The position numbers were made by a program, and so were the translations under genes. The notes beneath the pieces are model-generated. The model did no database searches. It was not told where the DNA came from and worked only from the letters and a program-made list of their open reading frames with translations. Of a DNA stretch of 10,031 nucleotides, positions 2,041 through 8,014 are shown one piece after another (position 1 is the stretch's first letter; every line of letters starts with the position of its first letter). The stretch is from a virus, in UHGV virus genome UHGV-0117372; one strand, 5' to 3'.

Positions 2041-2082
2041 ATTGCTCTAATGTGTTGCTATTTCTTTAATCGAGGGTATTAT
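2041..2082 (+). promoter_or_regulatory. C1-operator-like site overlapping a sigma-70 promoter upstream of lpa
   Basis: ATTGCTCTAATGTGTTG at 2041-2057 matches the P1 C1 operator consensus ATTGCTCTAATAAATTT (recalled from memory) at 13 of 17 positions, with the first 11 perfect. It overlaps a -35 TTGCTA (2055-2060) and a -10 TATTAT (2077-2082) separated by 16 bp. Confidence 0.5.
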
Positions 2083-2127
2083 ATTCCACGTTGATTAGTT
2101 GACATGGGCTAATCAGTAGGTGACAGG

Positions 2128-2580
2128 ATGTTACTTAACTGGCAGGGACGCCACTTCATGGAAATAAATCACTCACGAATAACATCGTACGAGATTGCGG
2201 ATTACATGATCCGCACTAAATCTCTTCTATCAGCGAAAGAACTCGCAGCAATTCTTGAAAAGGAATACCCGCATCTGGATGTCGATAAGCGCGACGTTTA
2301 TCTGCGCTTAAAGGCTATCGCTGTGTCTAAGTATTCGTCTGTTTTGATTGATGACAGTACACGCCCACGTAGATTTCAGATCCACTCTCTGAATCCTGAA
2401 TTCTTTCGCCGCAGCCGCGCGCCGCGCCGGTTTGATGAAAAACTCCAGAACGAACTCTATATGACGCAGGACGAAAAGGAACGCCGGGAGCACCAGCCTT
2501 GGGTAATGGCGCGTCAATTTTTCAATAAGGTGGTCCGTCAGCACCGTCATTACGGTAATGCCACATCCGCACGTATCTGA
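2128..2580 (+). CDS. lpa: Late promoter activator Lpa (P1 gp10-like), about 150 aa
   Basis: A 150-aa ORF sits between the pdc genes and pacA, as lpa does in P1, behind an operator-overlapped promoter. An alternative start at ATG 2158 (MEINHSR) cannot be excluded. Identification rests on synteny and size. Confidence 0.75.
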   Translation: MLLNWQGRHFMEINHSRITSYEIADYMIRTKSLLSAKELAAILEKEYPHLDVDKRDVYLRLKAIAVSKYSSVLIDDSTRPRRFQIHSLNPEFFRRSRAPRRFDEKLQNELYMTQDEKERREHQPWVMARQFFNKVVRQHRHYGNATSARI

Positions 2581-3859: not shown

Positions 3860-5343
3860 TGGCCAGAAGTTGCGTAACGGATCCTCGTTGGCGCGAGCTG
3901 GTGGCGCTATATCGTTATGACTGGATTGCTGCCGCTGATGTTTTGTTCGGCAAAACACCTACCTGGCAGCAGGATCTGATTATTGAGTCTGTGCAGGAAC
4001 AGGGTAGCAAGACATCTGTTTCGTCTGGTCACGGTACCGGGAAATCAGACATGACTTCTATCATGATCATGTTGTTCATAATCATGTATCCCGGTGCCCG
4101 CGCCATTATCGTTGCGAACAAAATTCAGCAGGTAATGACCGGTATATTCAAGTACATCAAGATAAACTGGGCTACTGCCACCAGCCGTTTTCCATGGCTT
4201 GCTGATTATTTTGTTCTGACAGAAACCGCTTTCTATGAGGTTACTGGTAAAGGTGTATGGACTGTAGTACCGAAGGGCTTTCGTCTGGGAAGTGAAGAAG
4301 CTCTCGCCGGTGAACACGCAGATCATCTTCTGTATATTATCGATGAAGCCTCCGGTGTCAGTGATAGAGCTTTCGGTATCATCACCGGTGCTCTTACCGG
4401 ACAGGATAACCGCATCTTATTACTGTCACAGCCTACACGCCCAAGCGGCTATTTCTACGATACTCACCATAAACTGGCCAAGCGTCCTGGTAACCCAGAT
4501 GGCGTTTATACGGCGATCACGCTTAACAGTGAGGAATCACCGCTGGTAACGCCAGAATTTATCAAAATGAAGCTGGCGGAGTACGGCGGGCGTGATAACC
4601 CTATGTACATGATTAAGGTGCGCGGCCTATTCCCTAAATCACAGGACGGCTTCCTTCTTGGACGTGATGAGGTTGAACGTGCAACGCGGCGGAAAGTTAA
4701 GATTGCCAAAGGATGGGGCTGGCTTGCATGTGTGGACGTTGCTGGTGGTACGGGACGGGATAAGTCAGTTATCAATATCATGATGGTGTCCGGCCAGCGA
4801 AATAAACGCCGTGTAATCAACTATCGAATGCTGGAATACACAGACGTTACAGAAACGCAGCTTGCCGCCAAAATTTTCGCAGAATGTAATCCTGAGCGAT
4901 TCCCCAATATCACCATAGCGATAGATGGCGATGGCCTGGGTAAAGCAACAGCGGATCTGATGTACGAGTATTATGGTATTACCGTACAGCGTATACGCTG
5001 GGGTAAAAAGATGCATAGCCGTGAAGATAAGAGCCTGTACTTTGATAAACGTGCTTATGCCAACGTTCAAGCCGCAGAGGCCGTAAAATCTGGTCGTATG
5101 AGACTGGATAAGGGTAATGAAACTATTGAGGAAGCGTCGAAAATCCCTGTAGGGATTAACTCCGCAGGTCAATGGAAGGTGATGAGTAAGGAGGATATGA
5201 AGAAAAAACTCAACCTGCACTCACCAGACCATTGGGATACATATTGTTTCGCTATGCTGGCGGATTATGTTCCCCAGGATGAAGTGCTTAGCGTCGAAGA
5301 CGAAGCGCAGGTTGATGAAGCTCTGGCATGGCTTAATGAATGA
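3859..5343 (+). CDS. pacB: Terminase large subunit PacB, 494 aa
   Basis: Walker A-like GHGTGKS near the N-terminus and a DEAS-type Walker B region ([10 protein letters not shown]). Length matches P1 PacB and the gene is translationally coupled to pacA. Confidence 0.93.
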
Positions 5344-5345
5344 AC

Positions 5346-5389
5346 ATTTGCTCTAATAAATTGTGTTTTTTAGCTACCGATGTTACATT
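5346..5389 (+). promoter_or_regulatory. C1-operator-like site (Op51-like) overlapping a candidate promoter for the immI-like module
   Basis: TTTGCTCTAATAAATTG at 5347-5363 matches the C1 operator consensus at 15 of 17 positions. It overlaps a candidate -35 TTGTGT (5361-5366) and -10 TACATT (5384-5389) with a 17-bp spacer, starting 3 bp after the pacB stop. Confidence 0.55.
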
Positions 5390-7997: not shown

Positions 7998-8014
7998 AGA
8001 TTTATTAGTGCATT
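7998..8014 (-). promoter_or_regulatory. C1-operator-like site between coi and c1
   Basis: The reverse complement of 7998-8014 (AATGCACTAATAAATCT) matches the C1 operator consensus at 14 of 17 positions. A weaker site with a perfect TTGCTCTAA core lies inside coi at about 8170-8186 (11 of 17). Confidence 0.4.

Follow-up and report, generated by a model that had tools for sequence, protein, structure and literature searches.

A conserved stem-loop at the 5′ end of the lpa mRNA in P1-like phage-plasmids

Introduction

Lpa is the master switch of all late genes of phage P1, those for heads, tails, packaging, and lysis, and to our knowledge control of its gene has so far been described solely at the level of transcription, as C1/Lxc repression at the operator Olpa. 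What, then, is the inverted repeat that lies between the lpa promoter and the annotated start of the gene and encloses a TTGACA hexamer? An earlier note on this DNA proposed either a second regulatory site or an mRNA hairpin that modulates translation of the activator. Here, we examine the repeat in a 10,031-nt stretch of a viral genome (UHGV-0117372; hereafter, the window) and compare it with its counterparts upstream of other lpa genes.

Results

The lpa control region of the window matches that of P1

Over bases 1900–2600 the window shares 98% identity with phage P1 and with the related P7, SJ46, and RCS47, and the genes follow one another in the order pdcB (996–2039), lpa, pacA, and pacB; judged by its sequence, the window is a P1-type phage-plasmid. 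The lpa product belongs to Pfam family PF25716 (BPP1_LPA; E = 1e-56). The GenBank record of P1 gene 10, M95666, lists a C1 repressor binding site, −35 and −10 elements, a start site, an RBS, and the gene 10 CDS, to which AF234172 gives the names Olpa and Plpa in place of Op94 and P94. From 2031 to 2135 the window aligns with P1 at every base save one, and these annotated elements therefore coincide with it base for base except at operator position 2054, which is G in the window and A in P1 (ATGTGTTG versus ATGTATTG); the same G variant is found in two IMG/VR loci, L060 and L084. The operator-overlapped promoter that the earlier note had picked out corresponds to the annotated Op94/Olpa and P94/Plpa and was already known. 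Both GenBank records leave the inverted repeat and any leader structure unannotated, and both begin lpa at the upstream of two in-frame ATG codons. The start site of M95666, “G at 4030”, is position 791 of our P1 locus L001 and position 2090 of the window (Table 1).

Plpa has 9 of 12 consensus matches and a 16-nt spacer in a promoter consensus scan. A matrix built from annotated C1 operators, which are 17-bp asymmetric sites (ATTGCTCTAATAAATTT), assigns Olpa 17.9 bits, the second-best score in the window. Additional strong matches lie 3′ of pacB, at 5347–5363 on the plus strand (21.3 bits) and at 8014–7998 and 8186–8170 on the minus strand (13.8 and 10.2 bits), and are presumably operators of the c1/coi immunity region. 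The promoter scan also returned an opposite-strand site at 2105–2078 (ATGTCA, a 16-nt spacer, and a perfect TATAAT; 10 of 12 matches) that overlaps the Plpa −10 element and the loop of the hairpin described below; its −35-like part is unconserved in other lineages, and the site is probably a chance match.

Table 1. Positions of features in and around the lpa leader (window coordinates, except for the last three lines, which name the locus concerned)
Feature	Position	Strand	Sequence or description	Basis
C1 operator Olpa (formerly Op94)	2041–2057	+	ATTGCTCTAATGTGTTG	Annotated in M95666 and AF234172; P1 alignment; C1 matrix
Sigma-70 promoter Plpa (formerly P94)	2055–2082	+		GenBank annotations; consensus scan
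Plpa −35	2055–2060	+	TTGCTA	Transferred from P1 annotation
Plpa −10	2077–2082	+	TATTAT	Transferred from P1 annotation
lpa mRNA transcription start	2090	+	G	M95666, “Transcriptional initiation site of Pr94, G at 4030”; P1 mapping
HP1	2091–2116	+	5′-terminal RNA stem-loop	Fold; covariation in 11 lineages; RNAalifold consensus
HP1 5′ arm	2091–2100	+	Perfect core 2092–2098
HP1 loop	2101–2106	+	GACAUG
HP1 3′ arm	2107–2116	+	Perfect core 2109–2115
TTGACA hexamer	2099–2104	+	Top of HP1 stem plus loop	Lacks a −10 partner; unconserved outside the P1 type
Annotated RBS	2115–2121	+		Transferred from P1 annotation
HP2	2117–2137	+	UAGGUGACA-GGA-UGUUACUUA	MFE folds in 8 lineages; RNAalifold
lpa (gene 10) CDS as annotated in P1	2128–2580	+	150 codons plus stop	ORF list; annotations; Pfam
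HP3 (predicted)	2140–2153	+	UGGC-AGGGAC-GCCA, 4-bp stem and hexaloop	Folds; RNAalifold
Second in-frame ATG	2158–2160	+	Residue 11 of annotated Lpa	Sole start codon in all lineages
D6-type leader hairpin, L005	1450–1500
D6-type leader hairpin, L103, L116, L121, L122	~555–606
Distant leader hairpin, L139	355–406

The repeat is transcribed and lies at the very start of the lpa mRNA

A repeat search of the control region found a single perfect 7-nt inverted repeat, TGATTAG/CTAATCA, with arms 10 nt apart. The left arm and the TTGACA hexamer lie where the earlier note had placed them, whereas the right arm occupies 2109–2115 and not, as it had stated, 2110–2116. Read as RNA, the repeat is extended by G-U pairs to a 10-bp stem, which we call HP1, with a ΔG of −9.3 kcal/mol and a z score of −4.05 relative to dinucleotide shuffles. 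It occupies +3 to +26 of the lpa mRNA: G2090 precedes the extended stem by 1 nt and the perfect core by 2 nt. A transcription start downstream of the repeat, to which the earlier note had looked as evidence against a role, is not what the P1 annotation gives. In the DNA, the repeat is the counterpart of an RNA stem-loop that opens the lpa transcript.

Perfect repeats of this size are common. Shuffled versions of the 10-kb window contain 6.5 ± 3.1 perfect 7-bp repeats with loops of 3–12 nt (22 overlapping matches are observed), and a shuffled 87-nt control region contains one or more of them with a probability of 0.027. In the window sequence by itself the repeat is marginally unusual and only suggestive, and a functionless chance repeat has to be weighed against what other lineages show. 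Rfam covariance models gave no match up to E = 10 on either strand of 1950–2300. An intrinsic terminator or attenuator was considered and rejected: neither strand of 2091–2125 has a terminator-like site, and the stem is followed by GUAGGUGA.

HP1 is maintained by compensatory changes

We assembled lpa loci from annotated phages and plasmids, from IMG/VR, from assemblies found by protein search to encode a diverged Lpa, and by pattern scans. The set comprises about 85 P1-type loci and ten further distinct leader types whose Lpa is ~64–90% identical to that of the window, making eleven distinct lineages with the P1 type included (Lpa 64–100% identical). Further searching added no lineage: a scan of genome contigs returned near-identical loci only, a profile scan of viral contigs returned 80 near-identical P1-type loci that are informative for polymorphism only, and pattern scans with the block that follows HP1 (HP2–HP3; see below), run on metagenome and viral contigs, returned only P1-type variants and lineages already in the set.

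The C1 operator and the TTGCTA ... TAT(T/C)AT promoter are kept in all eleven lineages, and a hairpin stands 6–7 nt past the −10 hexamer in every one of them, built from arms of differing sequence (Table 2). In a MAFFT alignment, which is not fitted to structure, 88.9% of the cells of a 9-pair HP1 helix are paired and six of the nine pairs show double, compensatory changes; L133 lies one column out of register in this alignment, which renders the counts conservative, while the eleven lineages are related and most share a TTGG..CCAA stem base, so the cell counts overstate the number of independent compensatory events. Neither the observed pairing nor the covariation score was reached in any of 500 column shuffles, and sliding the 3′ partner by 1–3 columns reduces pairing to 10–48%. 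A covariance-model alignment, being fitted to the structure, raises the values to 95.4% of cells paired and eight of nine pairs covarying. RNAalifold predicts the helix independently and adds a pair with nucleotide +1 in 10 of 12 sequences. The hairpin is stable in each lineage (−6.8 to −16.0 kcal/mol; z scores of −2.6 to −6.5) and leaves 0–2 unpaired 5′ nucleotides, counted outside the P1 type from start sites inferred from the −10 spacing.

Table 2. Arms of HP1 in representative lineages
Lineage	5′ arm	3′ arm
P1/window	TTGATTAG	CTAATCAG
JK004	TTGGTTGGG	CTCAACCAA
L089	TTGGTTGAG	CTCAACCAT
L128	TTGGCTGAG	(G)TCAGCCAA
L092	TTGGTTAACC	GGTTAACCAA
L131	TTGGTTGACC	GGTTAACCAA
pCFSAN058588	TTAGCTGAG	CTCGACTAA
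L133	GCAGCTTAAGC	GCTTCAGCTGC

Arm sequence, loop sequence, and loop length (4–10 nt) all vary among lineages while complementarity is kept, a combination that points to RNA pairing rather than to a protein-DNA site. The comparison indicates that selection acts on the pairing and position of HP1 rather than on its sequence, and the RNA structure is very probably real and selected. Of the two proposals in the earlier note, the mRNA hairpin is the one that the data favor: the element is transcribed, according to start mapping in P1, and changes across the eleven lineages as a selected RNA hairpin does.

Among 84 P1-type loci (63 of them distinct), the leader from 2090 to 2157 has one variable site in 68, the loop base 2101, whereas the operator/promoter segment 2040–2089 has 18 in 50, mostly in the spacer and discriminator; the 3′ end of pdcB and lpa have 12.7 and 6.7 variable sites per 100 nt, respectively. 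This pattern implies that the lpa leader is under purifying selection, next to a hypervariable promoter. That the repeat is a functionless product of chance, as the shuffled counts would allow, is very hard to reconcile with a hairpin retained at the same place in 11 of 11 lineages through compensatory changes and with a stem devoid of polymorphism beside so variable a promoter.

In the locus L137, whose Lpa is 42% identical, the upstream region is different and lacks a comparable hairpin. P1-like lpa fragments occur in contigs labelled as a Bacillota MAG and as Bacillus sp. (among L008; P0025; P0044, P0054, and P0058; and the plasmid hits H94 and H95), which looks like contamination. In several Escherichia coli records the first ~58 lpa codons are fused to a gene for a KilAC antirepressor domain, an arrangement that indicates recombination within lpa.

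Readings of the repeat as a DNA element

A palindrome next to a repressed promoter could also bind a protein, be it C1 at a second operator, C1-Lxc, Lpa, or a host factor, and its TTGACA could be the −35 element of a second promoter. CTAAT, the core of the C1 operator, is present in both arms, and TTGACA is a perfect −35 hexamer. Yet the best C1-matrix score anywhere on the repeat is 1.2 bits (9 of 17 matches to the consensus), a value equalled by ~1% of window positions, compared with 17.9 bits for Olpa and 21.3 bits for the site at 5347. The hexamer, for its part, has no −10 element at 16–18 bp, where the sequence reads TGACAG, GACAGG, and ACAGGA; the scan found no plus-strand promoter using it; and it is absent from all non-P1 lineages, while the P1-type locus L061 has TTTACA. 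Together with arms, loop, and loop length that change among lineages as complementarity persists, the signature of RNA pairing, these results make a DNA-level role of either kind very unlikely. Neither the second regulatory site envisaged in the earlier note nor a role of its hexamer is supported, and we judge TTGACA to be a chance match without a promoter role.

Resemblances to the Lpa-dependent late promoters bear on the same question. Seven annotated late promoters yield the consensus (g)AC-AAGTGACTT-N4-TAnnnT. The HP1 loop region (2099–2106) shares the 8-mer TTGACATG with a stretch just upstream of the late promoter LPpac (2607–2614), where the 8-mer overlaps the −22 box (2612–2620) ahead of a −10 element at 2625–2630. 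Despite this shared 8-mer, the HP1 loop region matches the −22 box at only 3 of 9 positions; the flanks of the two copies do not match, and we judge the sharing to be probably due to chance. A separate resemblance lies beyond HP1: AGGTGACAG at 2118–2126 matches six of the nine −22-box positions, and its counterpart in other lineages, AAGTGACAG, matches seven (AAGTGAC). An Lpa-dependent late promoter at this place was rejected, as TTACTT stands 4 nt on instead of TAnnnT; the match could be due to chance or could mark a site of Lpa autoregulation, a DNA-level Lpa box.

HP2, HP3, and the lpa start codon

From +1 to the second ATG, the predicted fold of the leader in most lineages is a row of three hairpins, which the RNAalifold consensus also shows. 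HP2 carries the annotated SD, AGGUGA (2118–2123), in its 5′ arm and GGA (2126–2128) in its loop, and the annotated AUG (2128–2130) spans the loop and the 3′ arm. Its seven core pairs are paired in 100% of cases, and the three that vary do so solely by G-U-compatible substitutions. The hexaloop of HP3 would display AGGGA (2144–2148), an SD for the second AUG located 9 nt before 2158; HP3 is predicted from folding energy and invariance only, its stem being unvaried in the 12 sequences. The entire block 2118–2153 is nearly identical in nucleotides across all lineages.

This conservation is, in most lineages, not that of a coding sequence. The “ATG” at 2128 is ACG in L125–127, L092, and L131 and AAG in L089, and is lost by a 1-nt deletion in L128–130 and L133; in L092 and L131, an additional 1-nt insertion breaks the frame from the upstream “ATG”. 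With this codon lost or out of frame, the stretch 2118–2153 is non-coding in most lineages and the ATG at 2158 is the only universal start. For JK004 and pCFSAN058588, gene callers and GenBank choose the second ATG as the start of the gene, and the Pfam BPP1_LPA domain starts at residue 15 of the 150-aa Lpa and at residue 1 of D6 Lpa; a search of the PDB for a solved Lpa structure that would define the N terminus found none. On this comparative evidence, ATG 2158 is the probable ancestral start of lpa and possibly the real start in P1, in which case the 150-aa annotation of P1 Lpa may overstate its length by 10 residues, or the gene may give rise to two isoforms.

Distant relatives use a different leader

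The D6-type lpa genes (~30% identity) and that of L139 (24%) lack the three-hairpin leader, and the P1-type covariance model matches neither. Their leaders hold instead one strong hairpin, of −15 to −23 kcal/mol, in which the SD forms the 3′ arm (Table 1). As in P1, the hairpin of D6-type leaders lies immediately upstream of lpa, a gene of the same family, and after a C1-operator-like sequence. The difference lies in the 3′ arm, which is the SD itself in the D6 type (GGGGGA, GGAGGGA, or GGAGGUG), whereas HP1 of P1 does not touch the SD. Compensatory differences between lineages are also seen in these distant hairpins. The sequences suggest structural repression of lpa translation in the D6-type clade; structured leaders recur in the lpa family and work differently.

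Discussion

HP1 as a probable 5′-terminal stabilizer

The most likely function of HP1, to which our analysis gives an even chance or slightly better, is that of a 5′-terminal stem-loop that stabilizes the lpa mRNA. E. coli RppH and RNase E require single-stranded 5′ ends, which explains the stabilizing 5′ structures of ompA and papA (PMC3997798). A terminal hairpin is expected to slow 5′-end-dependent decay because both enzymes need a single-stranded 5′ end. We posit that transcription from the C1-repressed Plpa would begin at G2090 and that nucleotides +2 to +27 of the lpa mRNA would form the 10-bp hairpin, so that no more than one nucleotide stays unpaired at the 5′ end; this structural cap would slow decay by RppH and RNase E, and the slower decay would in turn allow a short spell of derepression at the promoter to supply the Lpa needed for late-gene activation. 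Stabilizing hairpins are expected ~0–4 nt from the primary 5′ end, and the HP1 stem starts at 2091, next to the start annotated in P1 at 2090; the MAFFT alignment, the covariance model, and RNAalifold agree that pairing rather than sequence is selected.

HP1 shares with hp1 of the ompA 5′ UTR and with the papA structure (Emory/Bouvet/Belasco; PMC3997798) a position 0–2 nt from the 5′ end, a conserved structure without a conserved sequence, a location upstream of and apart from the ribosome-binding site, and an enterobacterial host with RppH and RNase E. It differs in that its stem is shorter and more A-U rich (−9.3 kcal/mol in P1), in that the gene concerned is a phage regulator, and in that two more conserved hairpins come after it. 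As an element, HP1 belongs to a well-known, ordinary class. We found no description of the repeat in the papers searched, though the original P1 papers (Lehnherr et al. 1991/1992; Lobocka et al. 2004) may mention it.

HP1 and translation initiation

HP1 could instead alter ribosome loading at the lpa start by (i) steric hindrance, (ii) coaxial stacking on HP2, or (iii) alternative folds of the leader. Its last nucleotide, 2116, is 2 nt before the annotated SD, and it adjoins HP2, which holds that SD and the ATG at 2128; the SD-pairing hairpins of D6-type and L139 leaders attest to structured translational control in the family; and the L128 leader has an alternative long-range MFE fold. What speaks against this reading is that HP1 has no SD and no start codon in any of the P1-like lineages, including the window, and so is not an SD-sequestering hairpin; that the universal start at 2158 and its SD are ~30 nt downstream, past HP2, with the SD exposed in the HP3 loop; that in the RNAalifold consensus neither HP1 arm has a conserved alternative partner downstream; and that HP1 varies freely in sequence while HP2 and HP3 do not, a poor fit with a specific pairing partner. 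We regard an effect on ribosome loading as unlikely overall. Direct translational control is the less likely form, because HP1 lacks an SD and AUG and the conserved initiation region lies past HP2, and a helper role in folding of the leader is possible. HP1 abuts HP2, so a role in leader folding or translation is not separable from the stabilizing role that we prefer.

HP2 and HP3 as a possible binding site

The near invariance of HP2 and HP3 raises another alternative, namely that HP1 is a structural insulator or scaffold that lets these hairpins fold for a trans-acting factor such as CsrA, with regulation residing in HP2/HP3. The two hairpins are almost unchanged across lineages whose Lpa is only 64–70% identical, even where the stretch is non-coding. 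Invariant GGA motifs stand in both loops, 20 nt apart, at 2126–2128 in HP2 (ACAGGAUGU) and within 2143–2150 in HP3 (CAGGGACG). The latter, C-AGGGAC-G, is an exact CANGGANG in a hexaloop closed by C-G and overlaps the SD. The CsrA SELEX consensus is RUACARGGAUGU, with GGA in a hairpin loop (PMC2896534, PMC6849547), and the HP2 sequence GUGACAGGAUGU agrees with it at 9 of 12 positions. Paired GGA loops of which the downstream one is the SD are likewise a feature of CsrA/RsmE leaders such as those of glgC, pgaA, and ColE7 cel (PMC2896534); the plasmid-borne ColE7 lysis gene, cel, is repressed by CsrA (PMC2896534) and shows that CsrA can control a gene carried by an extrachromosomal element.

Against these similarities, the extra purine of the SELEX consensus is missing from HP2, and the motifs in HP2 and HP3 are common by chance in the window: CA(N)GGA occurs 36 times on the plus strand versus 21 expected and CANGGANG 4 times versus 2.6 expected, so that a motif match carries little weight alone. 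A literature search returned no paper linking CsrA to lpa, and the likeness to CsrA targets concerns HP2/HP3, not the inverted repeat. Because an insulating role also leaves the constant start of HP1 at the transcription start unexplained, we consider it improbable as the account of HP1. A 2025 preprint describes transient over-induction of lpa in an hfq mutant, which hints, though not specifically, at a post-transcriptional input. Rather than competing with mRNA stabilization by HP1, HP2 and HP3 may be combined with it: the lpa leader would then be an undescribed module in which HP1 stabilizes the transcript and HP2/HP3 bind CsrA, a global regulator of the host, or another RNA-binding factor with sequence specificity that gates translation of Lpa from 2158, a proposal that we put forward tentatively and with considerable doubt.

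Implications

If such a module exists, the early-to-late switch of P1 would be tied to the physiological state of the host, and the textbook start of the 150-aa protein at 2128 would be wrong or secondary. HP1 sits in a leader that has gone unrecognized and is under strong constraint, on the mRNA of the activator that governs the late genes of a model phage, and comparison of this leader flags a probable misannotation of the start codon in the reference genome. P1-like phage-plasmids are common carriers of resistance genes in Enterobacteriaceae. The leader is relevant to their study and to the engineering of P1 phagemids, and supplies mutants to test. Given a conserved, covarying hairpin at the 5′ end of its mRNA and two invariant ones after it, how much Lpa is made, and when, would be governed by message stability and translation as well as by repression of the promoter.
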